From the NCBI GenBank assembly GCA_963700145.1, contig OY969474.1:2816001-2880000 (forward strand): a stretch of DNA of 64,000 nt, written 5' to 3'. The translations under genes and the position numbers were made by a program. The notes under the pieces were generated by a model that was not told the DNA's origin, ran no database searches, and saw nothing but the letters and a program-made list of their open reading frames with translations. The stretch comes from an uncultured Acidobacteriota bacterium. Lineage in GTDB: Bacteria > Acidobacteriota > Thermoanaerobaculia > Multivoradales > UBA5704. Positions 7,662 to 35,210 of the stretch are shown one piece after another; position 1 is the first letter of the stretch, and every line of letters begins with the position of its first letter.

Positions 7662-7699
7662 GGCGGGAGCCTATCCCGAGGACTGCCGAGGCCCGCGGT

Positions 7700-19018: not shown

Positions 19019-19788
19019 CCGTCGTCCCTCCCGTCGTCGGGGTGGTCGTGCTCCTCGGCAGGCTTCGGCTCCGGCCCCTGCGGCGCCCGGCCGGCGTCGC
19101 GTTGCCGGTAGGTGGCGGTGCCGTGACCGTGGCCGCCGGCCATCTCGCCGGCGAGCGCGGCCGCGCGCGCGGCTTCCGCGACCGCGGTCGCCGCCGGCGC
19201 GTCTACCGGGCCGGGCGCGAGCGTCGCCGCCGGCTGCCCCGGCTCGGCCGCGACGGCGGCCTCGACGAACGGCACCGCGCCCGCGTGCTCGCCGGCCGCG
19301 GCCGGCGCCGCCGGCTTCGCGTGCGTCGCGTGGCCGCCTGCTTGGGGCGCCGCCGCCGCCTCATGACCGGCATGGGAATCCGCCGGCGCCCCTGGGGGCG
19401 GGCTCGCGCCGTGCCCCGGGTGGCCGCCGCCGCGAGGCGCGGATGCCATCTGATGACCGGCGTGGGGGCCGGCCGCCGGCCCTGGTGCCCGGCGGCCGTG
19501 TCCTGCGTGTCCCTCTGGCTGAGCCGCCGCCGGCGCGGCGTGGCCCTCGTGCTCCTCGGCAACCCCGTGCGCATGAGCGCCGCCCGGCTCCTCGCCGGGC
19601 CCTCCGGGGGCGACCGCTCCGTGGCCGTGCGCGTGGCTGTCGCCGCCGAGCGGCTCGCCGCGCTCCTGCGCTTCGCGAAAGGCCGCGGCGCTGCGGCTGG
19701 CGGCGGTGTCGTCGCCGCCGCAACCGGAAAGGGCGAGCGCGAGCGCGGCCGCCGCCACCGCGCAGGCGAGAAGTGTCCTGGTTCTCAT
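19015..19788 (-). CDS. His/Ala/Gly-rich lipoprotein, putative metal buffer
   Basis: GGAGG RBS; LSGC lipobox; repeated HAGH/HAHG motifs; stop overlaps the TolC ATG. Confidence 0.75.
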   Translation of the reverse strand: MRTRTLLACAVAAAALALALSGCGGDDTAASRSAAAFREAQERGEPLGGDSHAHGHGAVAPGGPGEEPGGAHAHGVAEEHEGHAAPAAAQPEGHAGHGRRAPGPAAGPHAGHQMASAPRGGGHPGHGASPPPGAPADSHAGHEAAAAPQAGGHATHAKPAAPAAAGEHAGAVPFVEAAVAAEPGQPAATLAPGPVDAPAATAVAEAARAAALAGEMAGGHGHGTATYRQRDAGRAPQGPEPKPAEEHDHPDDGRDDG

Positions 19789-19888
19789 CTGCCGTACCTC
19801 CGTGCCGCAACTCTCGGCAGCGCCGACGCGCCGCCGCCGCGGCGATCCGCCGCGGAGATGGAGACCTCAGTCGTGGAGCTGCGGGAAG

Positions 19889-20263
19889 CTAGGCGAGAGG
19901 GACGTGGTCGAGACCGTGAGGCAGGGGCGCAAGGAGGTGCTCGCTGTCGGGCATGCGCGCTTCGGCGGCGAGCTCGACCGCCGCGAGATGCGCCGCGAAC
20001 GCGAGCACCGCCGCGCCCTGGCAGGCGTGCTCGCAGAGGGCGTCGCTGCCGTCTGCGCAGCAGTCGTCCTGCGGCGCGGCGTCGCGGCTGGCGAGCGCCG
20101 GGCCGCCGGCTGCATGCTCCTCGTGGCACGGCGCCTCCGTTTCGGGAGGAGCCGCCTGCGCCCGGCACGGATAAGGACCCGCGAGCAGGATCAGCCCGGA
20201 GAGGGCGAGGAGGGCGAGGGCGGTGAGACGGTGCGTCATCGCGACGAAGGCGGCCGCGGCCAC
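19889..20263 (-). CDS. Exported Cys/His leader protein (CopL/DUF2946-like) upstream of the cop operon
   Basis: Hydrophobic N-terminus; PCHEEH, DDCC, CEHAC; ends LDHVPLA; extended -10 TGcTAAGCT 7 nt before the GTG. Confidence 0.7.
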   Translation of the reverse strand: MAAAAFVAMTHRLTALALLALSGLILLAGPYPCRAQAAPPETEAPCHEEHAAGGPALASRDAAPQDDCCADGSDALCEHACQGAAVLAFAAHLAAVELAAEARMPDSEHLLAPLPHGLDHVPLA

Positions 20264-20291
20264 CGGGTGAAGCTTAGCACCTCGCGGGAAA

Positions 20292-20336
20292 CGGCCCGGC
20301 CCTCGAGCGAGGCGCTTCGGGGAGGCGCCGGGGCCG
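20292..20336 (-). terminator. Hairpin downstream of the Cys-rich peptide gene
   Basis: CGGCCCGGC...GCCGGGCCG inverted repeat followed by TTT on the minus strand. Confidence 0.4.
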
Positions 20337-20350
20337 CTCCGCTCTTCAGC

Positions 20351-20668
20351 CTAGGTCTGGGAGCAGACGCACCGCCGGCAGCAGGAGTTGACCTGGACGC
20401 ACTGGCCCGGGCCGCCGCAGATCGCGGTGCACTGGGCGTCGCTCGAGCAGCGGTTGCCGCAGCAGGCCATCTCCAGCCAATCCGGGGTGGTGTCGCGCAC
20501 CGCCGGCGTGGCGGTCTCGCCGCAGGTCGGCCCCGCGGCAGGGGTGGACAGCACTTCGGCGACGACAAGGTCCGCGGCCGGCGCGGGAAGCGGTGCCTCC
20601 CCGGCGGCGGCCGCCCCGGTACAGAGGGCGAAGGCGAGGACGAGGCAGGTCAGAGTGGGCTTGATCAT
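20351..20668 (-). CDS. Secreted Cys-rich defensin-like prepropeptide
   Basis: AGGAGG RBS; signal peptide; Pro/acidic spacer; C-terminal CCGNRCSSDAQCTAICGGPGQCVQVNSCCRRCVC with 10 Cys. Confidence 0.75.
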   Translation of the reverse strand: MIKPTLTCLVLAFALCTGAAAAGEAPLPAPAADLVVAEVLSTPAAGPTCGETATPAVRDTTPDWLEMACCGNRCSSDAQCTAICGGPGQCVQVNSCCRRCVCSQT

Positions 20669-20801
20669 CGCGTGCCTCCTTTCACCCTTTGGGGTGTTCC
20701 AGCGGTCCCCGTCTGGGACAGGCGCAGGCTTCACCCACTGCACGGCCGCGTTCTCTGTGCTCGGTTTGACCGGTCATTCAGGCGTGGGACACAATCCGGC
20801 T

Positions 20802-21167
20802 GTGCTCGTCTGCCGTCGCCTCGCCGCCGCTCTTCTCCTCGTCGCCGTCACCTCTGCGCCCGGGCTGCTCCAGCTCGGAGCGGCCGTGTGGGATGGTCAC
20901 AGCCATCCCGAGACGCTCGCCGAGGCGCTGGTGCACGGGCACGACCATCCCGAAGGCACGCCGCCGCACGCCCACGACCTCACTCCCGCGCCCTCCGCTC
21001 GGCAGGATCCGCCGCGCAGCGTCCAGTCCCCCGCCTTCTCGCCGCTCCGGCCCGGCCCCCCGGCGCAGCTCGCGCTCGCGACGGCGCCCCTCCGCGGGCG
21101 CCCGCCTGCCGGCCCGTCCGGCTGCGGCCCGCCGCGGCTCGCGCTGCTCTGCAGTCTGCTGATCTGA
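20802..21167 (+). CDS. Exported His-rich leader protein upstream of the czcCBA-like operon
   Basis: TTGACC (20766) and CACAAT (20790) then GTG 6 nt later; signal-like N-terminus; HSHP...HGHDH...PHAH; ends GPPRLALLCSLLI. Confidence 0.7.
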   Translation: MLVCRRLAAALLLVAVTSAPGLLQLGAAVWDGHSHPETLAEALVHGHDHPEGTPPHAHDLTPAPSARQDPPRSVQSPAFSPLRPGPPAQLALATAPLRGRPPAGPSGCGPPRLALLCSLLI

Positions 21168-21260
21168 ACCCCGCCTCCTAGCGCCGGCGCTCGCCCGGCC
21201 CCTTGCGGTGCCCTCTCGCGGCGCCGCGCACCCTGTTTGTTCCGCGCGAACGGAGTCGCC

Positions 21261-22490
21261 ATGTCCAGAACCTGGTTTGCCTTGCTGCTTCTGCTCGCTG
21301 TCGCGCCGGCCGGCGCGCAGGAGGAGGCGGTCCTCACCGAGGCGGAGCTCCTCGCCGCGGTGGGCGAGGACCACCCGGCCGCCGCCGCGCTCCTGGCGGA
21401 GCGCGAGGTGGCCGCCGCCGAGGTGGTGCGCGCCGCGCTGCTGCCCAACCCGGCCGTCGAGGTCACCCGCGAGGAGCCGGACCCGAGCGCGCGCGAGACG
21501 GCCGCCGTCGCCACCTGGACGCCGCCGTTCGGCGGGCGCCGCGCCCTGCGCCGCGAGGCGGCGGAGCGCGGGCTCGCGGCCGCCGAGGGGCGCCTCGCTG
21601 CGGGCCGGCTGCGGCTGCGGCTGGCGCTGCGCGCCGCCTACGCCGGCTGGGCGCTCGCCGCCGAGCGCCGGGACCTCGCGGCGGCGCACCTCGCCCGCGT
21701 CGGCGAGCTGGCGCGGCGGGCCCGCGCCCGCGCCGAGGCGGGGGAGATCCCCGGCCTGGCCGCCCGGCGCCTGACGCTCGAAGAGGGGCAGGCGCGCGCC
21801 GACCTCGCCCTCGCCGAGGCGGAGCTGGCCGGCCGGCGGGCGGAGGTGGCGGCTTGGCTGCCCGCGCTGTCCGCCGGCGCCCGCCCCGCCTCGCCAACCC
21901 TGCCGGCCGCCGCCGAGATCGCCCCGGCGGCCGCCCTCGCGGCGCGGGCGGACCTCCTCGCCCGCGAGCGGGAGGTCGAGCGCGCCGAGGCCTTGCGGCG
22001 GCTCGCCGGCCGCGTCGTCGATCCCCCGGCGCTCGGCCTCGGCTGGAAGCGGGTGGAGCAGGAGGGGGACGCCCACGCCGGGCCGGTCGCCTCGGTCGGC
22101 TGGACGGTGCCGCTCTTCGACCGCCGCCAGGCCGACCGCCGCGAGGCCGAGGCCCGCCTCGCCGGCGCCCGCGCCGAGCTGTCTCTGGCCCGCGCCCGCG
22201 CCGAGGCCGAGCTGGCCGGCGCGCTCGCCGCCTACGAGCGCCTGAGCCGCGAAGCCGGGGCGGCCGAAGCGGCCGCCGCCGAGACCGACGCGGTGCTGGC
22301 CGGCGCATCCGCCGCGTTCGAGCTCGGCGAGGCCGACCTGACCGACTTCCTCGACAGCCTGCGCGCGGCCCTCGCGTCGCGCACGACTTCACTCGCGTTG
22401 CGCGAGGCGGCGCTCGCCGCCGAGCGCGCCCTCGAGGCCGCCGCCGGCCGCCCCGTCGGATCGACTCCCGCACCTGGAGAGCTGCCATGA
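21261..22490 (+). CDS. TolC-family outer membrane factor (CzcC-like)
   Basis: Signal peptide; LPNP, VPLFDRRQ, AFELGEADL motifs; first gene of the RND operon. Confidence 0.88.
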   Translation: MSRTWFALLLLLAVAPAGAQEEAVLTEAELLAAVGEDHPAAAALLAEREVAAAEVVRAALLPNPAVEVTREEPDPSARETAAVATWTPPFGGRRALRREAAERGLAAAEGRLAAGRLRLRLALRAAYAGWALAAERRDLAAAHLARVGELARRARARAEAGEIPGLAARRLTLEEGQARADLALAEAELAGRRAEVAAWLPALSAGARPASPTLPAAAEIAPAAALAARADLLAREREVERAEALRRLAGRVVDPPALGLGWKRVEQEGDAHAGPVASVGWTVPLFDRRQADRREAEARLAGARAELSLARARAEAELAGALAAYERLSREAGAAEAAAAETDAVLAGASAAFELGEADLTDFLDSLRAALASRTTSLALREAALAAERALEAAAGRPVGSTPAPGELP

Positions 22491-24055
22491 CCCGTGCCGC
22501 GACGCCGCTCCTTCCCCTTGCCGTCCTGGCGCTCGCCCTTCTGCCGGCTTGCCGCGACGCCGGCCCTGAGGGCGACGAGCACGCCGGCGAGGCCGAGCCC
22601 TGGTCCGTCACCGCCTGGAGCGAGCACTACGAGCTGTTCGCCGAGACCGACCCCCTGATCGCCGGCCGCGAGGCCCCGTCGCACGCCCACTTCACCGTGC
22701 TGGAGGACTTCTCGGCGCTCGACCGCGGCGCCGTCACCGGCATCCTGCGCGGCGCCGGCCGGGAGGAGACGTTCCACGCGCCCTCGCCGCTCCGCCCCGG
22801 CATCTTCCGCGTCGTCTTCCGCCCGGCGCGCGAGGGCACCTTCGACCTTGTCTTCCGCGTCGAGGAGCCGGGCCGCCGCGAAGAGATCGCCGCCGGCCGC
22901 GTGCGGGTCGGGACGGCGGAGTCGCCGGGCGGGCTGGTCGCACCGCCGCCCGGGACGCCGGCCGCCGCGGCCGCTGCCGGCGAGCCGATCGGGTTCTTGA
23001 AGGAGCAGCAGTGGCGCACGGAGTTCGCCACTGCCTGGGCCGGGACCGGCACTCTGCGGCGGACGCTGCGGGCGCCCGCCACCGTGCGGCCGGCGGCCGG
23101 CGGCGAGGTGACGCTCACCGCGCCGACCGACGGTGTCGTCAGCTCGGCGCGGTGGCCGCACGTCGGCCTCGACGCGGCGCGCGGAACGCCGCTCTTCTCG
23201 ATCGCGCCGCGCGTTCAGAGCGACCGCAGCCTCTCGGAGCTCGGCGCCGACGTGACGGCGCTCGAGGCGGAGCTGGGCGCGGCACGGGCGCGCCTCGCGC
23301 GCCTGCGGGAGCTGATCGCGGTCGAGGCGGCGAGCCGCCGCGAGGTCGAGGAGGCGGAGGCGGCGGTGCGCTCGCTCGCGGCGCACCTCGAGGGGGCCCG
23401 CCGCGGCCGCGCGGCGGTGGGCGCGGTGCGGCGGGGCGGCGCCAGCCCGGAGAGCTTCCGCATCGCCGCGCCCATTGCCGGCCGGGTGGCGGAGGTGGCG
23501 GTGAGCCCAGGACAGTTCGTAGAGGCCGGGGCGCCGCTCGCGCGTCTGGTCCAGACCTCGCCGGTCTGGCTGGAGCTAGCCCTCCAGCCGGCCCAGGCGG
23601 CGCTCCTCACCGCCGCGCCGGCGGGCCTCTACGTCCGCCGCTGGGCGGAGGAGGAGCCGTTCCCGGTCCCCGGCAGCGAGCTGCGGCTCGTGGCGCGCGC
23701 CCCGGAGGTGGACGCCGGGACCGGCATGGTGCCGCTGGTCCTCGAGGTCCGCCGCGGCGTCGACGTGCTGCGCCTCGGCAGCCGGGTCGAGGCCGAGCTG
23801 CTGCTGCCGGAGGAGCTCCGCGGCGTCGTCGTGCCGGCTTCGGCGCTGGTGGACGACGACGGGGTCGAGGTCGTCTACGTCCAGCTCGAGGGCGAGAGCT
23901 TCGACCGGCGCGAGGTGCGGATCGAGGCCCGCCAGGGCCCGCACGTCCTGGTGCGGGGGGTCGCCCCCGGCGAGCGCATCGTGACCCGCGGCGGCAATGC
24001 CATCCGCCGCAGCTCCCTCCTCGGCGCCGGTGCCGTCGAAGGCCACGTCCACTGA
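22487..24055 (+). CDS. RND periplasmic adaptor lipoprotein (CzcB-like)
   Basis: LPAC lipobox; IAAPIAGRV; VVPASAL; ends GHVH. Confidence 0.9.
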   Translation: MTRAATPLLPLAVLALALLPACRDAGPEGDEHAGEAEPWSVTAWSEHYELFAETDPLIAGREAPSHAHFTVLEDFSALDRGAVTGILRGAGREETFHAPSPLRPGIFRVVFRPAREGTFDLVFRVEEPGRREEIAAGRVRVGTAESPGGLVAPPPGTPAAAAAAGEPIGFLKEQQWRTEFATAWAGTGTLRRTLRAPATVRPAAGGEVTLTAPTDGVVSSARWPHVGLDAARGTPLFSIAPRVQSDRSLSELGADVTALEAELGAARARLARLRELIAVEAASRREVEEAEAAVRSLAAHLEGARRGRAAVGAVRRGGASPESFRIAAPIAGRVAEVAVSPGQFVEAGAPLARLVQTSPVWLELALQPAQAALLTAAPAGLYVRRWAEEEPFPVPGSELRLVARAPEVDAGTGMVPLVLEVRRGVDVLRLGSRVEAELLLPEELRGVVVPASALVDDDGVEVVYVQLEGESFDRREVRIEARQGPHVLVRGVAPGERIVTRGGNAIRRSSLLGAGAVEGHVH

Positions 24056-24076
24056 TCGCCGCCGAGGAGACCCGCC

Positions 24077-27000
24077 ATGCTCGACGCCGTCATCCGCTTT
24101 TCGCTCCGCTACCGCGGCCTGATCCTGCTCGCGACCGGGCTCCTTCTGATCATCGGCTCGCTCTACGTCGTCCGCCTGCCGCTCGACATCTTCCCCGACG
24201 TCAGCGCCCCCACCGTCACCGTCGTCGCCGAGGCCCGCGGCATGGCGCCGGAGGAGGTGGAGCTGCTGGTGACCTTCCCGATCGAGTCGGTGCTCAACGG
24301 CGCCCCCGGCGTGCGCCGGGTGCGGTCGGTGTCGGCCGCCGGCATCGCGGTCGTCTGGGTGGAGTTCGGCTGGGGCGAGGACGTCTACCGCGCCCGCCAG
24401 GTGGTCTCCGAGCGCCTGCAGGGGGCGCAGCTGCCGGCGAGCGTCGATCCGCCGCAGCTCGGCCCGATCAGCTCGGTCATGGGCGAGATCACCTTCATCG
24501 CCATCACCGCGAAGACGATCTCGCCGATGGAGCTGCGCCTGCTCGCCGAGAGGGTGGTGCGGCGGACGCTGCTGTCGGTTCCGGGGATCTCGCAGGTCGT
24601 GCCGATCGGCGGCGACGTGCGCGAGTACCAGGTCGAGGCCGACCCCGTCGCCCTCGCCCAGCGCGGGATCACCGTCGACGACCTCACCGACGCCCTGGAG
24701 CGGTCGAGCCGCAGCGCCGCGGCCGGCTTCCACGTCGACCGCGGGCAGGAGTATCTCGTGCGCGGCCTCGGGCGCGCCCGCGGCGCCGCGGACCTGGCGG
24801 CGACCGTGCTGCGGGTCGACGGCGGCGTGCCGGTCAGGGTGGGGGACGTGGCCGCCGTGCGCGAGGGGGCCGAGGCCAAGCGCGGGACCGCTTCCTACAA
24901 GACCCGGCCGGCGGTCATCCTCTCCGTCCAGAAGCAGCCGGACGCCAACACCCTCTCGCTCACCCGCGAGATCGACCGCCTCCTCGCCGGCCTCGCCCGC
25001 TCGCTCCCGCCGGGAGTGACCATCGAGACCGAGAACTTCCGCCAGGCCGACTTCATCGAGGTGGCGATCGCCAACGTCGTGGCGGCGCTACGCGACGGCG
25101 CCCTCCTGGTCGTCGTAGTGCTCTTCCTCTTCCTCGGCAACCTGCGGACGACGCTGATCACGGCGCTTGCCATCCCGCTCTCGCTGGTCGCCGGCGTGCT
25201 CGTCATCTCGCTCTTCGGCCAGGGCCTCAACACGATGACGCTGGGCGGCTTGACGATCGCCATCGGCGCCCTGGTCGACGACGCGATCATCAACGTCGAG
25301 AACGTCTTCCGCCGCCTCAAGCAGGAGCGGACGCGCCCCGAGGCCGACCGGCGCCCGCCCTTCGAGACGGTCTTCCGTGCCTCCTCCGAGGTGCGGGGAC
25401 CGATCCTCTTCGCGACGCTGATCATCGTCCTGGTCTTCCTGCCGCTCTTCGTGCTCCCCGGCATGGAGGGGCGGCTGCTGCGCCCGCTCGGCTTCGCCTA
25501 CGTCGCGGCGCTCGCCGCCTCGCTCGTCGTCTCGCTCACCGTGACGCCGGTCCTCTGCTATCTCCTGCTGCCGCGCTCGAAGGTCCTCGACCGGCCCGAG
25601 CCCTGGCTGCTGCGGGCCTTCCACCGCGCCTACCGGCCCGCCCTCGCGTGGTCGCTGGCGAACCGCGGCAAGGTCGTCGCGACGACCGTCCTGGCCACGG
25701 CCGCGGCCGGCGCCGTCCTCTTCTTCGTCGGCCGCAGCTTCCTGCCGCCGTTCAACGAAGGGGCCCTCACCATCTCCGTCGTCAGCCCGCCCGGCATCAC
25801 CCTGGAGGAGAGCGACGCGCTCGGGCGGCAGGTCGAGGCGAGCCTCCTCGCCTTTCCCGAGGTCGTCTCGACCAGCCGGCGCACCGGCAGGGCCGAGAAG
25901 GACGAGCACGTTCAGGGGGTCAACGCCTCCGAGATGGAGGTGGTGCTGCGCGAGGGGCGCGAGAAGGACGAGCTGCTCGCCGAGATGCGCCAGGCGGTGT
26001 CCACGATCCCCGGCGCCCAGGTGACGTTCGGACAGCCGATCAGCCACCGCATCGACCACATGATCTCCGGCAGCAAGACCAACCTGGCGGTCAAGATCTT
26101 CGGCCCCGACCTGGCGGTCCTGCGCGGCCTGGCGGCACGGGCGCAGTCGCTCCTCTCCGGGGTCCCGGGGTTGGTGGACGTCTCCAACACCGAGCAGGCC
26201 AGCGTGCCGCAGCTCGTCGTCGACTTCGACCGCCGCGCCCTGCCGCTCCACGGCCTCACGCCGGCCGGCCTCTCGCGCTCGGTCGAGGCGCTCTTCCAGG
26301 GCACCGAGGCCGGCGAGATCGTCGAGGGGGGCGTCGTCTCGCGCGTCGTCGTCCGCCTGCCCGAGCGCCTGCGCGCCGCGCGCGAGGAGCTCGCCGCGCT
26401 GCCGGTGCCGACCCCGTCCGGCCACACCGTGCCGCTGGGCGAGGTGGCGCGCGTGCGCTTCGACTTGGGGCCCGGCCTGGTGCGGCGGGAGAACGTCGAG
26501 CGCGTGGCGATGGTCACGGCCAACATCGCCGGCGCCGACCTCACCGGGACGGTCGAGCGGGTCCGCCGCCGGCTGGACGCCGGGCTCGAGCTGCCGGCCG
26601 GCTACCGCATCGCCTACGGCGGGCAGTTCGAGGAGGCGGCGCGCAGCCTGCGTAACCTGACGACGCTGTCGGGGCTGGTGCTGCTCGGCATGTACGCCAT
26701 CCTCTTCTTCGCCTTCCGCAACCACCGCCACGCGCTGATCGTGCTCGTCAACCTGCCGCTGGCGCTGGTCGGCGGCGTCTTCGCGGTCGCCTTGGGCGGC
26801 GGCGTCCTGTCGGTCGCCTCGCTGGTCGGCTTCATCACCCTCTTCGGCATCGCCACGCGCAACGGCGTGCTGCTCGTCTCGCACTACCAGCACCTGATGG
26901 CCGAGGAGGGGCTGGGGCTCCAGGAGGCGGTGGTCCAGGGCTCGCGCGAGCGGCTCGCGCCGGTGCTGATGACGGCGCTGACCGCCGGGCTCGCCCTGAT

Positions 27001-27166
27001 CCCCCTGGTCCTCGCCGGCGGCAAGCCCGGCAACGAGATCCAGAGCCCGATGGCGCAGGTGATCCTGGGGGGCCTGCTGACCTCGACCTTCCTCAACCTC
27101 GTCCTCGTGCCGGTGCTCTTCGCGCGCTGGGGAGGGGTTCGGGCGCCGGTGGGCGAGCGGGCGTGA
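24077..27166 (+). CDS. Heavy-metal efflux RND permease (CzcA/CusA family)
   Basis: 1029 aa; PLDIFPD, GALVDDAIINVEN, FLPPFNEG, RLAPVLMTA. Confidence 0.95.
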   Translation: MLDAVIRFSLRYRGLILLATGLLLIIGSLYVVRLPLDIFPDVSAPTVTVVAEARGMAPEEVELLVTFPIESVLNGAPGVRRVRSVSAAGIAVVWVEFGWGEDVYRARQVVSERLQGAQLPASVDPPQLGPISSVMGEITFIAITAKTISPMELRLLAERVVRRTLLSVPGISQVVPIGGDVREYQVEADPVALAQRGITVDDLTDALERSSRSAAAGFHVDRGQEYLVRGLGRARGAADLAATVLRVDGGVPVRVGDVAAVREGAEAKRGTASYKTRPAVILSVQKQPDANTLSLTREIDRLLAGLARSLPPGVTIETENFRQADFIEVAIANVVAALRDGALLVVVVLFLFLGNLRTTLITALAIPLSLVAGVLVISLFGQGLNTMTLGGLTIAIGALVDDAIINVENVFRRLKQERTRPEADRRPPFETVFRASSEVRGPILFATLIIVLVFLPLFVLPGMEGRLLRPLGFAYVAALAASLVVSLTVTPVLCYLLLPRSKVLDRPEPWLLRAFHRAYRPALAWSLANRGKVVATTVLATAAAGAVLFFVGRSFLPPFNEGALTISVVSPPGITLEESDALGRQVEASLLAFPEVVSTSRRTGRAEKDEHVQGVNASEMEVVLREGREKDELLAEMRQAVSTIPGAQVTFGQPISHRIDHMISGSKTNLAVKIFGPDLAVLRGLAARAQSLLSGVPGLVDVSNTEQASVPQLVVDFDRRALPLHGLTPAGLSRSVEALFQGTEAGEIVEGGVVSRVVVRLPERLRAAREELAALPVPTPSGHTVPLGEVARVRFDLGPGLVRRENVERVAMVTANIAGADLTGTVERVRRRLDAGLELPAGYRIAYGGQFEEAARSLRNLTTLSGLVLLGMYAILFFAFRNHRHALIVLVNLPLALVGGVFAVALGGGVLSVASLVGFITLFGIATRNGVLLVSHYQHLMAEEGLGLQEAVVQGSRERLAPVLMTALTAGLALIPLVLAGGKPGNEIQSPMAQVILGGLLTSTFLNLVLVPVLFARWGGVRAPVGERA

Positions 27167-27396
27167 GGCGGCGGTTCGCTCCGGCGCTGCGCTTCCCGGC
27201 GCTCACCCGGTTCTACGACACGCTCGCGGAGCGCTTCTTCCGCGACGCGGAGCGGAAGCGGCGTCTGGTCGCCCTCGGCCCGCCGCGCGCGGGCGAGGTC
27301 GTGCTGGACGTCGGCGGCGGCGCCGAGCTGCGTGTCGAACGCACGCCGTTCGGCATTCTCGTCTACCACTGCGCGCGCCGCGGCCGAGCGGCGTAG
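27163..27396 (+). pseudogene. Internally deleted class I SAM methyltransferase remnant
   Basis: LTRFYD...VVLDVGGG motif I, then only about 25 residues before the stop. Confidence 0.55.
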
Positions 27397-27435
27397 ACTT
27401 CAGAGAAGAACCATCTGACACGAGGGGGATATCCG

Positions 27436-27780
27436 ATGTTCTACCGCTCTCGCCGAATCGTGCTGACCCTCGCCCTGGCTCTGTTCGCCGTCCTTCCGGT
27501 CCTGGCGGGCGGTGAAAACGGCCAGCCCACCACCACCGCGGCCGCCGCGGCCGTCGAGCACGTGACGGTCGTGTCGGGCACTTTCAACGTCGGCATGGGG
27601 GACACGTTCGACGCGGCGAAGGGGATGACGCTGCCGACAGGCACCTTCGCCTTCCTGGCGCCCGGCATGCACCACTACGCCTGGGCGAGCGGCGACACCG
27701 TCATCCAGCTCCACGGCGTCGGACCCTGGCAGATCAACTACGTGAACCCGGCCGACGACCCACGGAAGAAGACCCAGTAG
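27436..27780 (+). CDS. Exported cupin (DUF4437-like), apparently shortened
   Basis: EHVTVVSGTF...GMHHYAW...IQLHGVGPWQINYVNPADDPR; first cupin His motif is not visible. Confidence 0.65.
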   Translation: MFYRSRRIVLTLALALFAVLPVLAGGENGQPTTTAAAAAVEHVTVVSGTFNVGMGDTFDAAKGMTLPTGTFAFLAPGMHHYAWASGDTVIQLHGVGPWQINYVNPADDPRKKTQ

Positions 27781-27785
27781 CACTG

Positions 27786-28892
27786 ATGCTCCGGGCTCCC
27801 CTCCTCGCCGCGCTCCTCGGCCTGGCCGCCGCCGCGCCGGGGTGGGCGTTCGCCGACGACGCTGGCGCCGTCCTCTGGCACTTCGACACCGGCGGCTGAC
27901 TCTTCACCGCCCCCGCGGTCGCGGAGGACCTCCTCTACACCGGCGCCTGCCCCGGCAACTTCTACGCTCTCGAGCGCGCCACTGGGCGGGTGCGCTGGCA
28001 GTTCGACACCGCGCGCGGCGGCGGCCCCAAGGCGCTCTTCCACGGGCACCCGGTGGTCGCGGGCAACCTGGTCATCACTCCGTCCGACGGCCGGCCGATC
28101 TCGTCCGTCTACGCCTTCGACCGCGCCACCGGAGCGCTGCGCTGGGAGTGGCCGGCCGAGGGCGGGGTGGAGGCCGACCTCGTGCTAGCCGGCGGCCGCG
28201 TGCTCGCCCTCACCGGCACCGCCGAGCTTGCGGCGCTCGACGCGCGGACCGGCAAGGAGCTGTGGCGACTGGCCCCGGACGGCCCGCAGCCGCGGCAGGA
28301 GCTCCACAAGAGCGCGCCGGCGGCCGGGGAGGGCCGGGTGTTCTTCGAGAGCGCCGTCGGCCGCCTCTACGCCGCCGACCTCGGCACCGGCAGGGTGCTC
28401 TGGCAGCGCGACTTCGGACTCGACGTCACGACCTCGCTCCTGCTCACCAAGCGAGGCTTGTTGATCGGCCTCGCCGACGGGCGAATCGTCCGGCTCGACC
28501 CGAAGACCGGTGACGTCGAGACCGCCCTGGCGGTGGACGGCGTGCCGCGCGGCCCGCTGGTGCTCGCCGAGGGCGTTCTCCTCGTCCTGCTCGACAGGGA
28601 AGGGACGCTGCTGGCGGTGGAGGAATCGCTCGCCAAGACCCTCTGGCGGCGCGAGCAGGTGGGCAAGTGGAGCGCACCGCGGCCGACCGTGCGGGGCGAC
28701 AGCGTGCTGATGGGCACCGCGCAGGGGGAGCTCCAAGCCTACGCGCTACGCGACGGCGCGCCGCGCTGGCGTTCTGCCTTCGAGGGCGTGCTGCGCGGGA
28801 TCGGCGTCGCCGGCGACGCGCTCTACGTCGGCACCGAGGGCGGCCGCCTGTACGCCTACCGGCCCGATGCTGGCTCGCCTCGCTCTCGCTAG
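27786..28892 (+). CDS. Exported PQQ-like (BamB-like) beta-propeller with in-frame UGA at codon 38, candidate selenoprotein
   Basis: ATG 27786, signal peptide, LWHFDTGG-TGA(27897)-LFTAPAV...GACPG...RWQFDT in frame with the 27990 ORF; CCGC-GGTC-GCGG hairpin at 27913-27924. Confidence 0.75.
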
Positions 28893-29177
28893 CGGCGCGG
28901 TCGCGCTTCTGCTGTTCCGCCGAGCAGCGGTGGCCGCTGCGGCACCCGACCGCGGCCTTGCTGGCGCGCCTGGCGGTCAATCTGATCCTCGCCGCGGGAG
29001 CGTTGGGGGTGCCGGCCTACGCCGCGCCCGCCGACAACTGGCGGCGGCCCGACGGCGCACCGGCCCGGCGCAGCGAAGCGCTCCCAGGGCGGCCGGAGGA
29101 CTTGGCGGAGTGACGCAGAACGCCCCGGCGTCAGACGGTCTTTAGAATTAGGAGCGCGACCCACAGGAGATAAGGAC

Positions 29178-30923
29178 ATGACTCGATCTTCGGATCCATT
29201 CCCGACAGACGCCGCCGGTCTGCCCGAGGCGCGCCCCTCCGAGCCGGTCGACCTCGGCGACGGGGACCAGTTCGACCTTCGCATCGCGCCGGTGGCGAAG
29301 CAACTCGGCGGCGCGACCGTGCGGATGCTGGCCTACAACGGCTCGATTCCCGGCCCGACGCTGCGAGTGCGGCAGGGGTCGAGGCTCGTGGTCGACGTCG
29401 CCAACGAGGGCGACCTCGAAGCGACGGTGCACTGGCACGGGCTGCGCCTGGAGAACCGCTACGACGGGACGGCCGAGACGCAACCGCCGATCCCCATCGG
29501 CGGCAGCTTCACCTACGAGATCGAGTTCCCGGACCCGGGCGTCTACTGGTACCACCCGCACATCCGCGAGGACTACGGCCAGGAGATGGGCCTGTACGGC
29601 AACATCGTGGTCGTGCCGGCTGAGCCGGACTACTGGCCGCCGGTCCACCGCGAGCTCACCCTCACTCTCGACGACATCCTGCTGGAGGACGGCACGGTCG
29701 CCCCGTTCGACCGGTCGCACCCCACGTACACGGCGATGGGCCGGTTCGGCAACGTGCTGCTGGTCAACGGCGAGCCCGAGCTGGCGCTCGCGGCGCGGCA
29801 GGGCGAGGTCCTGCGGCTCTACCTGACCGACACCGCGAACACGCGGGTCTTCAACGTCGCCGTGCGCGGCGCGCGCATGAAGCGCGTCGGCGGCGACAGC
29901 GGGCACTACGAGCGGGAGGAGCTGGTCGAGAGCGTGGTGCTCGCGCCCTCGGAGCGGACCGTGGTCGACGTCCTGTTCGACCGGCCCGGCCAGGCGACCC
30001 TCGAGCACCGCACGCCCGGCCGGACGTACACGCTGGCCACGATCGCCGTGAGCGACGAGCAGGCGGAGCCGTCGCTGGCGCCGCGCTTCGCGGACCTCCG
30101 CACCAACCCCGACCTGGCGGCCGAGCGCCAGCGGATCGCGCCCTATCTCGAGGCCGCGCCGGACAAGACGCTCGCCCTGGTCGCCGAAATGGACATGGGC
30201 GCGCCGGAGCTGCCGGCGGGCGCGGCGGTCGAGTACTACTGCCCCATGCACGCGGAGGTGGTCAGCGCCGAGCCGGGCCGGTGTCCGAAGTGCCACATGA
30301 AGCTGCTCCCCCGCGAGGCCGCGGCACCGGCATACGCGTGCCCGATGCATCCCGAGGTGCGGAGCGCCGAGCCCGATCGCTGCCCCAAGTGCGGCATGAA
30401 GCTGGTGCCGGCGCAGCTCGTGCCCGAGCCCGGGCACGGCGAGCACCAGCACGGGCCTTCCCACGGCGATGACGGCGGGCACCCGCACGAGCACGACGGG
30501 GACCAGGCGCCCGAGCACCTCGGCATCGAGTGGGAGGACGACATGGTCGAGGTAAACCGCATGACCACCCCGGCCAACATGCGCTGGAAGCTGATCGACC
30601 GGGCGACGGGCGCCGAGGGCGCGGCGATCGACTGGCGGTTCCGCGTCGGCGAGCGGGTGAAGATCCGGCTGGTCAACGAGATGGACTCGGATCACCCGAT
30701 GCACCATCCCTTCCACCTCCACGGGGCGGGGCGTTTCCTGGTCCTCGCCCGCGACGGAGCCCTCGAGCCCAACCTCGTCTGGAAGGACACGGTCCTGGTG
30801 CGCACCGGCCAGACGGTGGACATCCTCCTCGAGGTCACCAACCCCGGCGTGTGGATGGCGCACTGCCACATCGCCGAGCACCACGAGAGCGGGATGATGT
30901 TCTGCTTCCTCGTCGAGCCGTAG
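29178..30923 (+). CDS. Three-domain multicopper oxidase with two inserted CPMH heavy-metal-binding domains
   Basis: HWHG, YHPH, HPFHLHG, HCHIAEHHESGM; YYCPMH...CPKCHM and YACPMH...CPKCGM; His-rich linker; no signal peptide visible. Confidence 0.92.
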   Translation: MTRSSDPFPTDAAGLPEARPSEPVDLGDGDQFDLRIAPVAKQLGGATVRMLAYNGSIPGPTLRVRQGSRLVVDVANEGDLEATVHWHGLRLENRYDGTAETQPPIPIGGSFTYEIEFPDPGVYWYHPHIREDYGQEMGLYGNIVVVPAEPDYWPPVHRELTLTLDDILLEDGTVAPFDRSHPTYTAMGRFGNVLLVNGEPELALAARQGEVLRLYLTDTANTRVFNVAVRGARMKRVGGDSGHYEREELVESVVLAPSERTVVDVLFDRPGQATLEHRTPGRTYTLATIAVSDEQAEPSLAPRFADLRTNPDLAAERQRIAPYLEAAPDKTLALVAEMDMGAPELPAGAAVEYYCPMHAEVVSAEPGRCPKCHMKLLPREAAAPAYACPMHPEVRSAEPDRCPKCGMKLVPAQLVPEPGHGEHQHGPSHGDDGGHPHEHDGDQAPEHLGIEWEDDMVEVNRMTTPANMRWKLIDRATGAEGAAIDWRFRVGERVKIRLVNEMDSDHPMHHPFHLHGAGRFLVLARDGALEPNLVWKDTVLVRTGQTVDILLEVTNPGVWMAHCHIAEHHESGMMFCFLVEP

Positions 30924-30928
30924 GCTCC

Positions 30929-31951
30929 CTACGGGCAGAGCCCGCAGGTCGAGCTGGTCTTCGTCACCGTCCCCTGGCAGGCGACGTCCGCTCCCGTGGC
31001 GCAGGCGACGGTGCCGACCGTCGAGTCCGCGATCACCCCGTTGGCGAAGGTCTGCAGGTCGAGCGGGCGGGCGAGGCTCGAGCCGGCGACCGTCAGGGTC
31101 GAGTTGGTGAGCACGAAGTTCGTCCCCGCCCCCGCCGGCTGCGTCACGTCCGCGAGGTTGATCTGGCTCTTCGTGTCGGCGATGACGCGGCCGTCGAGCG
31201 TCCCGGTCTCCCAGTTGACGACCGACTCCAGGTCGGCGCGCAGCGCCGGCCCGGTCGTCGCCGCGACGTCGGTGTCGAAGCCGTCGATCCGGCCGCCGCC
31301 GAACGCCCGGAAACCGATCGGCCCGGAGACGTTCGAGGTCTCGAGGAACAGCTCCCCGGCGGCGTCGACGATCCCGGCCGCGCCGGCGTTGCCGTGGATC
31401 TCGCAGTCGGTGCAGCCGATGCGCGCGACGCGCGCCACCGAGAGCGCCGCCTGGCCGTTGTTCTCCAGGCGGCAGTCGCGCAGCAGCGCGAAGGTGCCGC
31501 CGGAGAAGCGGGCGCCGATGCCGGCGTTGCCGCTGATCCAGACGTTGGTCAGGCTGACGTTCGCCTCGTAGGCCACGAGGCCGCCGGCGGCGCCGTTCTC
31601 GAGCGACAGGTTCTCGAAGTTGACCGAGAGCTGCCCCTGGACCGCGACCGGGCCGCTGAAGGCCGAGTCCGAGACCACCACCAGCGCGTCGGCGCTCGTC
31701 GGCCCGACGATGCCGTCGAGGGCGGGGTCGGTGCCGCGGATCGTGACGCCGGAGCGCCGGATCCACAGGCCCTCCTGGCACTTCCCCTGGACCTCGACGA
31801 CCAGGGGATCGGCCTTGTCTTCCAGGGCGGCCTGGATGCTGTCGCCCTTGGCGCACTTGACGACCACGGTCTTGGCGACCGCCGGCGATGAAACGGAGGC
31901 GGCGAGCGCCGCCCAGAGCACGGCCACGAGGAAACCCCTCGTCCAACGCAT
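30929..31951 (-). CDS. Secreted right-handed beta-helix repeat protein
   Basis: AAGGAGG RBS; signal peptide; GDSIQAAL; repeated ISGN/LENN/IHGN coils. Confidence 0.75.
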   Translation of the reverse strand: MRWTRGFLVAVLWAALAASVSSPAVAKTVVVKCAKGDSIQAALEDKADPLVVEVQGKCQEGLWIRRSGVTIRGTDPALDGIVGPTSADALVVVSDSAFSGPVAVQGQLSVNFENLSLENGAAGGLVAYEANVSLTNVWISGNAGIGARFSGGTFALLRDCRLENNGQAALSVARVARIGCTDCEIHGNAGAAGIVDAAGELFLETSNVSGPIGFRAFGGGRIDGFDTDVAATTGPALRADLESVVNWETGTLDGRVIADTKSQINLADVTQPAGAGTNFVLTNSTLTVAGSSLARPLDLQTFANGVIADSTVGTVACATGADVACQGTVTKTSSTCGLCP

Positions 31952-32019
31952 GACGACCTCCTTTCGCTGTGGGTAAGCAGGACGATTGTACGCCCCCGCC
32001 GGCAGCGCACGAGTTATCT

Positions 32020-32590
32020 CGGACCGTCCGAGATGGATCCCGGGGTGCCGGAGATTCATTGCCGGACCCTGGAGACCTGTCTCGGGGCTCCGGAGATGAA
32101 TTGGCCATGGCCCGGGATCTCTCGCCGTGCCGCCGCAACTCATCTTCCATAGCCGGAGATCTATCTCTCACCCTCGGAGACCTCCCTCCGGGCATCCGAG
32201 ATGTCCCTCCGGCGACCCACAACCTCTGGCCGTGGTGATGGTCGGCGGCCCGAGAGGAGCTCGTTGCGGCCCTGGAGTGGCGTAACGCCCGCCGGAACTC
32301 CGGAATGTCCTCGCGCGACCTGCAGACGCCCCGGTGGAGCCTCCCGATGTCCTCCCGGGACCTTCGGAACCTCCTGCGCGCCCTCCGGAACCTCCTGCGC
32401 GACGCCGGGAATCGATTGCGCAACGCCGGGAACTGGTTGCGCGCGCTGCGGAACCTCCTCCGAGCCGCTCGGAAAGGATTCCCGGCGCTCCGCAACCTGT
32501 TCCCCGGCCCGCGCAACCCATTCCCACGCTCCGGGAAAGGGTTCCGAAGCCGCCGCAGGACGTTCCACGCCTCCCGCAGGCCATTGGGCG
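32020..32590. repeat. Degenerate 21-bp tandem repeat array
   Basis: GGAGAT-containing units at 21-nt spacing, then CGGAACCTCCTGCGCGCCCTC-type units. Confidence 0.75.
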
Positions 32591-32666
32591 CCGCGCGGAG
32601 GCCGGTCGCCGCCGCTCGGCGGGCGTCGCGGAGTTCCCCCTGGGAAGGCCGAGTACAATTCCGACG

Positions 32667-33029
32667 ATGAACTCGCGGCGCCGCTTCCCCACCGTCGCCT
32701 TCGCCCTAACGGCGTGGACGCTGGTGGTGGGCCTGAGCGGTCCCCCCTGCCGCGAGCCGGCTTCCTGCCCGATGGACGAGACCGCCGCGGCGCCGACGTG
32801 CGACGGCCTCTCGTCGGACTGCTGCCAGCCGGCCGGTGAGAAGGCGCCGCAGTTGCCGGGGCCGGTCGCGCCGGCGGCGGCACCGCTGGCCATCGCGCCG
32901 AGCGCGGCCACCGAGCTGGTCGCCCTCCGCGACGCGCCCCGGCTCCTCGCGGCCGTCGAGCACCCGCCGCCCCTCGCGGTCGTCCGGGGCACCGGCCTCC
33001 ACACCCTCCTCGCCGTCTTCCTGATCTAG
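32667..33029 (+). CDS. Exported Cys-rich leader protein upstream of the merT-like operon
   Basis: TACAAT 7 nt before the ATG; signal-like N-terminus; PC...SCPM...TC...DCC; ends HPPP...GLHTLLAVFLI. Confidence 0.75.
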   Translation: MNSRRRFPTVAFALTAWTLVVGLSGPPCREPASCPMDETAAAPTCDGLSSDCCQPAGEKAPQLPGPVAPAAAPLAIAPSAATELVALRDAPRLLAAVEHPPPLAVVRGTGLHTLLAVFLI

Positions 33030-33096
33030 CGCTCCCCCCGGGAGAGGTGCGCCCCGCCGCCGTCGCGGCGTGGGTTCTCTCGCCAAGGAGGAGCGC
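33029..33096 (+). promoter_or_regulatory. Shine-Dalgarno-sequestering hairpin
   Basis: GCGCTCC (33029-35) pairs with GGAGCGC (33090-96); inner GGGAGAG/TTCTCTC and CGCCGC/GCGGCG stems. Confidence 0.65.
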
Positions 33097-33534
33097 ATGC
33101 GAGCTGGATCTCAGAGTCTGCCACCGCCCGGAGCGGCCTCGCCGAAGGTGACGGCGTCGTCGCTGCTGTCTCTCTTCACCTCGCTCGGGACGCTGGTCTG
33201 TTGCGCGCTGCCGTCGCTGCTCGTGCTCGCCGGCCTGGGCGCGACGGTGGCCTCGACGCTCTCGGCCCTCCCCTGGCTCGTCGCCCTGTCGCGGCACAAG
33301 GCGTCGACCTTCGCCGTCGCCGGCGTCCTCATCGCCGGCAACCTCGGCTACGTCTACTGGCTCGCGCCCCGATTGCGCGCCCGGGCCCTCGGCTGCCCAA
33401 TCGACGACCCGGCCGCCTGCCAGGTGGCGAGCCGCTTCAGCCGCCGCGTGCTCTGGCTCTCGGCCGCGCTCTACGGGATCGGCCTCTTTGCGGCGTACCT
33501 GCTCGGGCCCCTGCTCGCGAGGTTCGCGTCGTGA
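33097..33534 (+). CDS. MerT/MerC-like heavy-metal transport membrane protein
   Basis: LVCCALPSLLVLAGLG Cys pair in TM1; second pair CPIDDPAAC; three TM helices. Confidence 0.8.
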   Translation: MRAGSQSLPPPGAASPKVTASSLLSLFTSLGTLVCCALPSLLVLAGLGATVASTLSALPWLVALSRHKASTFAVAGVLIAGNLGYVYWLAPRLRARALGCPIDDPAACQVASRFSRRVLWLSAALYGIGLFAAYLLGPLLARFAS

Positions 33535-34400: not shown

Positions 34401-34909
34401 AACGACTCGTTCTGCTCTCGCTCCTGCTCACCTTGCTCGCCCCCGCCGCCGCGGCGCGCGCCGAGCTGCTGCGCATGCAGCAGGTCCTCTTCGGCATGGA
34501 CTGAGCGGTCTGCGCCCACGCCGTGCGCGTGGCGATGCAGAAGATCAAAGGCGTGGAGAAAGTCGAGGTCTCGCTCAACCGCGGCGTCGTCGACCTCACC
34601 TTCCGCCCCGGCAACACCGCGACGGTCGAAGCGGTGCGGCAGGTGGCGATCGACGGCGGCTTCGCGCCCAAGGACGCCGAGGTGCGGATCGCCGGCACGA
34701 TCGTCCACCGCGGCCAGCCCGGGCTCGCGGTCAAGGGCCTCGACGTCGTCTACCTGCTCGTCGACCACCCGAGCGCCAAGGGCCTCGCCAAGCGCCTGCA
34801 CGGCGAGCACGCCGGGAAGGACGTGGTGCTGCGCGGCGTGGTTCCGGAAACCCGGAAGGCAGGGGAGCCGCGCGTGCTGCAGGTCCAGGAACTGGTGCGG
34901 CGCGATTAG
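34397..34909 (+). CDS. Exported HMA/MerP-like protein with UxxC motif (candidate selenoprotein)
   Basis: GAGGAG RBS; signal peptide; FGMD-TGA(34502)-AVCAHAVRVAMQKIKGVEKVEVSL is the HMA GMxCxxC motif with UGA at the first Cys; hairpin immediately 3'. Confidence 0.85.
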
Positions 34910-35112: not shown

Positions 35113-35210
35113 GGGCGGTACTGTAGGCACCTAATAGCCGCCCGTCAATGTGGGGATCCGCGTTGACTCCTCCTATGCATGGGACTACACTCCGGACTCG
35201 TAGGACCAGA

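Follow-up and report, generated by a model that had tools for sequence, protein, structure and literature searches.

A 64,000-nucleotide (nt) stretch of DNA from an uncultured Acidobacteriota bacterium (contig OY969474.1, positions 2,816,001 to 2,880,000), referred to here as the window, carries metal-resistance genes among which three unrelated small open reading frames (ORF1, ORF2 and ORF3) lie ahead of metal-export or metal-binding genes. Our main finding concerns ORF3, which encodes 120 amino acids (aa) at 32667..33029 on the plus strand and was characterized through its conserved relatives and their alignment. Strong comparative evidence places ORF3 in a well-defined, unnamed family whose members appear to have the build of CutF-type exported leaders together with a tail of a new kind, and we regard the case that ORF3 is a cis-acting leader peptide of this type, switching on the gene that follows it, as evenly balanced. 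A first-pass annotation of this DNA had proposed that three metal operons are each headed by a leaderless, exported leader peptide and by a hairpin that sequesters the next gene's Shine-Dalgarno (SD) sequence. That observation is partly confirmed, and its interpretation is partly supported.

From its N terminus, ORF3 is made up of a hydrophobic helix, a cysteine-rich segment (C28-x5-C34PM-x10-C45-x6-C52C53Q), a Pro/Ala linker and the tail GTGLHTLLAVFLI, which is followed by the stop codon. Among 150 candidates, 20 proteins were related to ORF3 at E<=0.01, the named ones (P0009 and P0012) being proteins from metagenome-assembled genomes (MAGs) of Thermoanaerobaculia. A profile made from 16 relatives and run against 1.84 billion representative sequences found 38 proteins at E<=1e-3, and for 23 the E value was 1e-10 or lower. 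With these representatives clustered at 50% identity, we aligned the window protein with 30 of the 38 to give 31 rows, leaving out P0002, a near-duplicate of the clade of the window protein, and seven N-terminally short predictions (P0018, P0033, P0046, P0049, P0050, P0056 and P0060). The N-terminal half of the family consists of a basic N terminus, a hydrophobic helix and then P-x-C, five residues, CPM, C and G-x-DCCQ, while the C-terminal half consists of a Pro/Ala-rich stretch almost without conserved residues and the sequence APAV(L/I)QGVGL(H/F/Y)TL(F/L)AVFLI, after which the stop codon comes directly.

Of 55 family sequences, 51 carry the tail, with the stop codon directly after it, and the other four (P0059, P0061, P0062 and P0065) have other or early ends. 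In the 51 tail-bearing sequences the distance from the CC pair to the C terminus is 59 to 71 aa, with a median of 65 and a standard deviation of 2.2; because this distance is nearly constant while the linker residues drift, the linker keeps its length and not its sequence. For comparison at the nucleotide level, we scanned genome contigs with a profile of the 16-sequence alignment, which gave 39 pattern matches, of which 5 were confirmed as family loci (L001 to L005). All five come from Thermoanaerobaculia or Acidobacteriota MAGs, and the window and L001 are close kin. Across the last 11 codons of the six loci there are six synonymous variants and three amino-acid variants and, because the synonymous variants outnumber the others, selection seems to act on the peptide sequence of the tail, beyond any action on its RNA. 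The stop codon is TAG at three loci, TAA at two and TGA at one; since all three are used, no single release factor would be the target.

These properties bear on a competing explanation that we hold possible, at something clearly short of an even chance, namely, that each of the three ORF products is a small metal-binding protein of an ordinary kind, periplasmic or anchored in the membrane and working in its mature form as a chaperone, buffer or CzcI-like modulator, that the helix after ORF3 serves only translational coupling, and that the ORF3 tail is a partner-binding, membrane-associating or protease/PDZ-recognition signal. All three ORFs are indeed conserved as proteins with ligand-rich segments, and the hydrophobic ORF3 tail is predicted to form a short helix. 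However, a linker fixed in length and not in sequence fits poorly with a mature metal-binding protein, as does the ending of the tail exactly at the stop codon, where the RNA helix begins. Furthermore, AlphaFold2, supplied with the 31-row alignment, returned a low-confidence model of ORF3 (predicted local distance difference test score, 61; predicted template modeling score, 0.28) containing only helices 7-24 and 111-118, with no fold predicted between these two terminal helices, which also speaks against that explanation.

Several assignments for the ORF3 protein were considered and rejected. The tail is not a C-terminal transmembrane anchor, as it has only 13 or 14 hydrophobic residues after R/Q, nor an outer-membrane beta-signal, given its Ile end and predicted helix, nor a sortase- or exosortase-type sorting signal, as it lacks a basic end. 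ORF3 was rejected as a lipoprotein because no lipobox precedes its first Cys. A Pro follows the hydrophobic segment, and an uncleaved anchor may apply.

Searched against Pfam at E<=10, the 31 aligned family members gave no hit to DUF2946 and none to another plausible family. Among the Atlas language-model look-alikes of ORF3, unnamed Acidobacteriota-type clusters rank first; DUF2946 is carried by 23% of the members of another nearby cluster (score, 0.93), which shares few features with ORF3 and is a lead only. We found no published description of a family with the ORF3 tail and ligand pattern, and overlap with the 29 clusters of PMC9973294 is possible.

The family also shares the way in which its genes begin. 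A −10 box, TACAAT (32654..32659, plus strand), lies 7 nt before the ORF3 ATG, and a TANNNT hexamer lies 6 or 7 nt before the ATG at all six loci (TACAAT, TAGAAT, TAGGAT, TATCAT, TACCAT and TAGAAT), leaving no room for an SD sequence. Such hexamers occur at a frequency of 0.0001 to 0.0014 per position, and the joint chance of about 6e-18 is overstated by the close kinship of the window and L001. The first-pass annotation had placed a −10 box 6 to 7 nt before all three ORFs; this held for ORF3 and for ORF2, which has a full promoter, and a −10-like box also lies before the GTG of ORF1, a start that is doubtful because two relatives do not conserve it. Eight ORFs of at least 50 aa in the window start 6 or 7 nt after a TANNNT hexamer, among 164 such hexamers on both strands, and they include a ribbon-helix-helix gene, a DtxR-family gene and a PmbA/TldD-family gene, which suggests that leaderless initiation is common in the source organism. 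With eight such ORFs in the window, the leaderless arrangement is real but not diagnostic of a leader peptide. Examples of these starts are at 34906-35112 (minus), 6984-7661 (minus), 60199-61506 (plus) and 40579-40989 (minus).

The spacer between ORF3 and the next gene is predicted to fold into a multihelix structure whose outer helix, P1, joins the ORF3 stop codon to the SD sequence of the next gene. In both the minimum free energy (MFE) and the centroid structure, the 5′ arm of P1 (33029..33037, plus strand) is the last base of the TAG stop codon and the following 8 nt (GCGCUCCCC), and the 3′ arm (33087..33096, plus strand) is GG-A-GGAGCGC, comprising the SD sequence and the bases up to position −1 of the next ATG. 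Between the arms, at 33040..33082, lie helix P2 (GGGAGAGG paired with UUCUCUC) and the P3 hairpin. The spacers of the family are 66 to 100 nt long and fold well below shuffled controls at five of the six loci, with z scores of −5.2 for the window (0 of 200 shuffles as good) and −4.4, −3.4, −3.2 and −3.7 for L001, L002, L003 and L004, respectively (1 of 200 in each case); L005 gave −0.6 (44 of 200).

P1 is part of the MFE structure at five of the six loci, where it runs from the stop codon's final base, or the one after, onto the SD sequence up to the next ATG. Its arms are GCGCUCC/GGAGCGC in the window and L001, GCGCUCU/AGAGCGC in L002, GCGUCUCC/GGAGGACGC in L003 and AGCCUCC/GGAGGCU in L004, so that they diverge between lineages with complementarity retained, the pattern of compensatory changes. 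As a control, the pairing of the 14-nt segment from the stop codon with the 16 nt that precede the ATG was set against that of every other 14-mer within 3 kilobases (kb); the share of 14-mers doing equally well was 0.010, 0.026, 0.004, 0.049 and 0.002 at the five loci with P1 and 0.643 at L005. For the P1 duplex at ORF3, 57 of 5,900 control windows were equally good. Two inner elements recur at all six loci, a second helix (GGGAxxxG with xxUCUC) and a GU[GC][UC]G[CU] motif that begins 19 to 22 nt after the stop codon and, at ORF3, falls within the P2 and P3 region. A MAFFT alignment of the six spacers misplaced the 3′ arms of L004, and no Rfam family was found in 19600-33400 (E<=1) or in the whole window (gathering thresholds). 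The stop-to-SD hairpin proposed for all three ORFs stands for ORF3, with its z score of −5.2 and its retention in relatives; for ORF1 and ORF2 it is not above chance.

The gene after the ORF3-family member varies. At two loci, the window and L001, it is MerT-like; L002 and L003 have a gene for an outer-membrane efflux protein (OEP) there, and L004 and L005 one for an exported CxxU/TGA metal-binding protein. This changing downstream gene argues for a role in cis and not for a fixed protein partner, and it tells against ORF3 acting as a mature metal-binding protein, which would have no constant partner because its neighbor changes among three unrelated kinds.

Taken together, comparison of the loci shows a conserved, predicted leaderless start, a common peptide architecture, a P1 helix that appears to be compensated, and a changing downstream gene. 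By analogy with known leaders, we infer that ORF3 is exported and itself senses metal, that ribosomes pause as they terminate, that regulation depends on metal, and in which direction it acts. According to the mechanism that we propose, the ORF3 mRNA would begin at or beside the ATG, and the hydrophobic N-terminal helix would deliver the growing peptide to the Sec translocon. While the RNA is free, the stop-proximal bases would pair through P1 with the SD region of the next gene and hide it, and a ribosome at the ORF3 stop codon would cover the 5′ arm of P1, freeing the 3′ arm and letting the next gene initiate. When a stop codon occupies the A site, the ribosome footprint is known to take in about 12 further nt. 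Because these 12 nt take in the whole 5′ arm, reaching the stop codon would have to open P1. This opening follows from the anatomy, and the arrangement is the same as that given for cutF-cutO in the available text of the published accounts (PMC9973294; bioRxiv 10.1101/2025.02.05.636593). The dwell time at the stop codon would be set by the invariant last 14 to 19 residues in the exit tunnel, and also by the state of the five-Cys cluster (metal bound or disulfide bonded). Lying about 65 residues upstream, approximately the length of the tunnel plus the translocon, this cluster would just have entered the periplasm.

A stronger version of this proposal, which we put forward only tentatively, is that the ORF3 family represents a new class of exported, metal-responsive arrest peptides, in which binding of a thiophilic metal to the five-Cys cluster, newly out of the translocon, would make the nonproline hydrophobic tail QGVGLxTLxAVFLI retain the ribosome on the stop codon, opening a conserved multihelix RNA and turning on the downstream resistance gene. 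ORF1 and ORF2 would then be independent solutions of this kind in the same genome, and metal resistance in this lineage would be managed largely without dedicated transcription factors.

A number of results weigh against reading ORF3 as a leader of this kind. The tail lacks proline or a RAPP-like arrest motif of the proven kind, the hairpins of ORF1 and ORF2 are within chance, and the pausing, export and metal response of ORF3 are argued from analogy. L005 lacks P1, and its SD sequence pairs instead with the last codons (UCUUCCUG). A covariance model made from the window, L001 and L002 failed to recover L003 to L005, the next best hits having E values of 0.0015 to 0.3 and lying in the wrong places. 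The P1 comparison comprises six loci, two of them close kin. When positions −15 to +12 around the stop codon were kept unpaired at equilibrium, the SD region stayed paired in the window, L001, L002 and L005 because it paired anew with upstream CUCC-rich codons. With the RNA 3′ of the ribosome considered by itself, the accessibility of the SD core rose clearly in L003 (0.17 to 0.55) and L004 (0.00 to 0.51), but it barely changed in the window (0.20 to 0.29) and L001 (0.40 to 0.32) and changed little in L002 (0.45 to 0.59) and L005 (0.22 to 0.29). This parked-ribosome model is an equilibrium model that omits kinetics, trailing ribosomes and the 30S subunit itself. Its outcome is mixed: the modeling suggests no clean SD switch, which counts against an easy reading, and the lack of such a switch at four of the six loci favors the view that ORF3 works as a mature metal-binding protein.

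It is also conceivable, though we think it improbable, that control is transcriptional, as in CruR and TnaC, with the position of the ribosome at the end of the leader deciding Rho-dependent or hairpin termination in the spacer and with the SD pairing being secondary. CruR, a DUF2946 leader, uses Rho-dependent termination, according to the abstract of its description (PMC9426467), and in the spacers a stretch partly rich in U (UUCUCUC, AAUUUCUC and CCUUUCUC) comes after the GC-rich inner hairpins. However, the scans of 32200-33200 and 19700-21300 turned up no terminator-like site, helix P2 has the U-rich stretch as its 3′ strand, and the most conserved pairing takes in the SD sequence itself. 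The spacers are also shorter, at 66 to 100 nt, than the 162 nt given for cruR in the available text of PMC9973294. The same abstract corrects the first-pass annotation, which had cited CruR as acting through an SD hairpin.

To our knowledge, periplasmic metal sensing by a nascent exported peptide has been shown only for CutF and CruR, both of which are DUF2946 proteins with proline-based arrest motifs. ORF3 resembles CutF, which also is a small exported ORF heading a metal operon; both have Cys ligands in the part that is, or would be, exported, conservation of the C-terminal segment and a spacer of <100 nt with an SD-shielding stem-loop, and neither needs an adjacent transcription factor. In the parts of the literature available to us, CutF of Rhodobacter capsulatus (cutFOG) is described as having 45 residues between its motifs (PMC9973294) and a stem-loop that shields the SD sequence of the next gene (PMC9973294; bioRxiv 10.1101/2025.02.05.636593). 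ORF3 differs from it in several respects: its tail is hydrophobic (QGVGLxTLxAVFLI) and adjacent to the stop codon, whereas CutF-type motifs are PPP or RAPP-like; its ligands follow the pattern C-x5-CPM...C...DCC and not CxxxC; its ligand-to-end distance is about 65 aa and not 45 aa, the CxxxC of ORF1, at 43, being close to CutF; its start is leaderless; it belongs to the phylum Acidobacteriota; and it has no DUF2946 (PF11162) match.

CruR is likewise encoded upstream, at the head of a copper-regulated operon, and has Cys ligands together with a conserved arrest motif at its C terminus, but this motif is RAPP, and CruR is a DUF2946 member, is Rho dependent and has a 162-nt spacer. As far as the available accounts go, copper relieves the arrest of CruR (Bp2923) of Bordetella pertussis at RAPP, leading to Rho-dependent transcription termination (Roy et al. 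2022, PMC9426467), later in vitro work demonstrated this arrest (PMC12992588), and the action of CruR is independent of its signal sequence (PMC9973294). In having the last residues in the tunnel with a stop codon in the A site, the proposed ORF3 arrangement is also like that of TnaC-type peptides (PMC8450073, PMC8429421 and PMC11890864, as available in part), but stalling in the ORF3 family is argued from analogy, and the two have no sequence similarity.

The idea of a wide family of such leaders is itself already in print. In the available text of Ozturk et al. (2023 mBio, PMC9973294), the CutF-like proteins number 5,334 and form 29 clusters, and their motifs consist of Cys, of His or of both; OEP and resistance-nodulation-division (RND) genes are the commonest neighbors, and most spacers are <100 nt. 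Judged by the rules of that survey as available, all three ORFs qualify in length (<150 aa), in having the next gene on the same strand and in spacer length (<1,000 nt). A PP within the last 15 residues is found only in ORF2. ORF1 has no PP, ORF3 has PPP at −21 to −19, and the wider ORF3 family has no PP near its end, so that the published PP filter would exclude ORF3 and ORF1 because neither has PP in its last 15 residues. As to metal-ligand motifs, ORF1 has CEHAC, ORF3 has five conserved Cys residues and no CxxxC, and ORF2 appears to have His ligands only. Export is suggested by a basic N terminus followed by a hydrophobic segment, and an SD-shielding stem-loop is supported for ORF3 and four of its five relatives and not for ORF2. 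What would be new, set against the available text of PMC9973294, is the nonproline, stop-adjacent tail in Acidobacteriota.

If the proposed role of ORF3 is correct, the same operon logic would exist without detectable homology, meaning that the principle arose more than once, and searches for PP or RAPP C-terminal motifs would miss part of such leaders. The family would make a compact test system, with about 120 codons, a 66- to 100-nt spacer and natural compensatory variants. It would also help to explain how Acidobacteriota metal-resistance clusters without nearby MerR-, ArsR- or two-component-type regulators might be regulated.

All three ORFs are real genes with conserved relatives, at the coordinates originally given for them, and the architecture described for them recurs in all three alignments: the N-terminal hydrophobic segment, the ligand-rich middle and the C terminus are conserved and the linker varies. 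The spacer lengths of 67, 93 and 100 nt were also borne out. This likeness is, on the comparisons that follow, architectural only, and the three ORFs are apparently unrelated. No match was found for any of them in Pfam at E<=10 or NCBIfam at E<=1, BLASTP among them gave nothing significant, and profile-profile comparison of the three families (hhalign) gave probabilities of 0.4%, 1.6% and 0.7%. Family hidden Markov models (HMMs) found no further copies of ORF1, ORF2 or ORF3 among all ORFs of the window and the loci, and tblastn against 72,556 plasmids gave no match. The motif LxxLLxxxLI, said to occur at two of the C termini, is not common to them: an HMM built on the final 20 aa of 51 ORF3-family proteins and run against the 1,103 ORF C termini of the window and the loci recovered only the six family members, with ORF2 ranked 838th of 856 and ORF1 unreported. 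Of the proposed wider family, then, the common membership of the three ORFs did not hold up, and a family with ligands matched to the operon is, as far as the available text of PMC9973294 goes, largely published.

Coincidence could account for such likeness, given high-GC ORFs, Pro/Ala-rich translations and stable folds, in which case ORF1 and ORF2 would be just small genes. We consider this unlikely. In its support, 118 ORFs of at least 50 aa overlap 15000-38000 (23 kb), the many open frames being due to the high G+C content; the three ORFs have no sequence relation; the ORF1 and ORF2 hairpins are within chance; and leaderless-type starts are common in the window, with eight found. However, all three ORFs have relatives with conserved ends, all three directly precede metal genes, and the features of ORF3 are far beyond chance. 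We therefore describe ORF1 and ORF2 as conserved small genes for putatively exported metal-ligand proteins in the leader position, for which a regulatory role is proposed solely by analogy. Both may work in a way similar to ORF3, ORF2 being His rich with GPP near its end and ORF1 having CxxxC 43 residues from its end and a multicopper oxidase in its cluster, a suggestion drawn entirely from peptide architecture.

ORF1 (19889..20263, minus strand) encodes 124 aa from the GTG at 20263 or 116 aa from the conserved ATG at 20239. Its product has a signal-like N terminus ending in AQA (a putative AQA-A site), six Cys residues, including DDCC and CEHAC (CxxxC), and the tail LLAPLPHGLDHVPLA, which ends at the stop codon; CEHAC lies 43 residues from the C terminus, and the tail has no PP. 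Among 721 candidates, seven proteins, ORF1 included, were related at E<=0.01, one of them (P0030) coming from an "Anaerolineales bacterium" MAG. A −10-like box, TAAGCT (20271..20276, minus strand), preceded by TGc, lies 7 nt before the GTG at 20263. In P0025 and P0026, however, the Val of this GTG reads Ala, and only the Met of MTHRL (ATG 20239) is conserved. Because GTG 20263 is not kept in these relatives, a leaderless ORF1 is doubtful, and its transcript may instead have a short leader lacking an SD sequence. In the MFE structure of the 100-nt spacer (19789..19888, minus strand), GCUUCC, starting from the G of the stop codon, pairs with the next SD sequence, GGAGGU. The shape is like that of the ORF3 hairpin, but the z score is −1.94 (10 of 200 shuffles as good), and the stop-to-SD pairing is not above chance, as 16 to 53% of control windows were as good. 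Removal of the first 13 nt of the spacer raised the unpaired fraction of the SD core from 0.16 to 0.80. Among the Atlas look-alikes of ORF1 are a cluster with DUF2946 (22% of members; score, 0.96) and one with CzcI (20%; score, 0.94), which are leads only.

The proposal that the operon is headed by its leader fails for ORF1, as a 105-aa exported Cys-rich gene (20351..20668, minus strand) with a strong SD sequence, AAAGGAGG, precedes it on the same strand. This gene lies between the ORF2 promoter and ORF1; its product has a signal-like N terminus and a C-terminal block of 12 Cys residues (…ACCGNRCSSDAQCTAICGGPGQCVQVNSCCRRCVCSQT), and it had no match in Pfam, NCBIfam or a PDB sequence search.

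ORF2 (20802..21167, plus strand; 121 aa) has a hydrophobic N terminus, a His-rich block (HSHP...HGHDHPEGTPPHAHD), a Pro-rich linker and the tail SGCGPPRLxLLCSLLI, followed by the stop codon. Its promoter, TTGACC-18 nt-CACAAT (20766..20795, plus strand), lies 6 nt before the GTG at 20802 and was the sole sigma-70-like site that the scanner found in 19700-21300 (0.0 expected). Three relatives were found at E<=0.01 among 392 candidates. Their predicted N termini (…GHNPAV…) translate the promoter and start DNA of ORF2 exactly, which is consistent with a conserved promoter and start, a GTG start at 20784 being the possible alternative. The SGCGPPRLxLLCSLLI end is invariant among these relatives, with GPP at −12/−11. 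In the 93-nt spacer (21168..21260, plus strand), CUCC, 11 to 14 nt after the stop codon, can pair with the SD sequence GGAG, and this hairpin is no better than chance (z = −0.45; 62 of 200 shuffles as good; 75 to 99% of controls as good). A 93-aa protein, P0021, is 95% identical to ORF2 and may represent a second genomic copy or another assembly; the family HMM found no second copy among the ORFs of the window.

CzcI of Cupriavidus metallidurans sits upstream of czcCBA. ORF2 resembles it in lying just before an OEP, a membrane-fusion protein and a CusA/CzcA-family RND pump, in its small size and in its signal-like N terminus and His-rich sequence, but no sequence relation between the two was found: ORF2 had no Pfam match at E<=10, in a Pfam copy that may lack the CzcI model PF28244, and no tblastn match in the 72,556 plasmids. 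In the available text of PMC9973294, CzcI is counted as CutF-like without a proline motif; the suggestion there that this positional counterpart of ORF2 is a metal-sensing regulator is in keeping with the three ORFs being ordinary metal-binding proteins.

The G+C content is 58 to 78% over the window and 72 to 78% across the region of the three ORFs, the source genome being very GC rich, and we chose genes by codon-position G+C and named them with Pfam and NCBIfam. In the ORF1 cluster, the first gene after ORF1 encodes a His-rich lipoprotein with an LSGC lipobox (19015..19788, minus strand), recognized from the Pfam/NCBIfam scan and its sequence. It is followed by genes matched in Pfam to an OEP (17585-19018, minus) and a multicopper oxidase (16200-17588, minus) and, further along the same strand, by a cytochrome c, a DUF305 protein and a copper-type P-type ATPase. 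This ATPase (12785-15409, minus) has N-terminal YHS and HMBD domains in Pfam and not classical HMA domains. After ORF2, the OEP, membrane-fusion protein and RND pump occupy 21261..27166 on the plus strand (Pfam), the pump matching TIGR00914 at 771 bits (cutoff, 701). Past the pump on that strand are a gene of no named family, a beta-propeller protein and a second multicopper oxidase. The latter (29178-30923, plus) has two HMBD heavy-metal-binding inserts in Pfam.

In the second plus-strand cluster, ORF3 is followed by genes for a 145-aa membrane protein, a 289-aa exported protein and a CopZ/MerP-like protein containing an in-frame TGA. The 145-aa protein (33097..33534, plus) carries a VCCALP motif; it had no Pfam match, and its MerT-type similarity is below threshold (NCBIfam E values of 0.029 and 0.13, far below the cutoffs). 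The 289-aa protein (33531..34400, plus) belongs to no known family, has an uncertain start and ends in ...FVVNFSYWFVPRSTP. The third gene (34397..34909, plus) encodes an exported heavy-metal-binding protein with the TGA at 34502-34504, within GMD-U-AVC, and the part after this TGA weakly matches CopZ and UxxU_metal_bind in NCBIfam. TGA-containing relatives are found in L004 (4391-4888) and L005 (2493-2987), with GYLCGL-U at the ligand position. In all of these genes the frame continues for about 125 to 135 codons past the TGA and, because it runs on in this way, they are probably selenoprotein genes. A hairpin follows each TGA; a ACGGCCGUG-GCCGU stem is conserved in L004 and L005, and the fold z scores are not significant. 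Between 100 and 300 nt upstream of ORF3, at 32366-32566, lies an array of GGAAYNNNNTGCGC repeats with 21-nt spacing, four in plus and then three in minus orientation, accounting for 7 of the 19 matches (<=1 mismatch) in the 64 kb. L001 has a similar array at 2136-2294 (four forward and one reverse), about 1.8 kb from its ORF3 homologue. The array may be a binding site array for an unlinked regulator.

Pfam and NCBIfam showed no MerR, ArsR, CsoR, CopY or two-component genes in or beside the three clusters, so that the absence of an adjoining metal-responsive transcription factor noted earlier holds by Pfam. The nearest regulators are the ribbon-helix-helix gene at 34906-35130 (minus) and the DtxR/MntR-family gene at 6984-7670 (minus). 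Elsewhere in the window, a protein with TIR and TPR domains is encoded at 3215-4447 (minus), and a Mutator-family transposase is encoded at 54195-55514 (plus). The stretch at 50 to 54 kb falls to 58% G+C and is possibly a mobile insertion.

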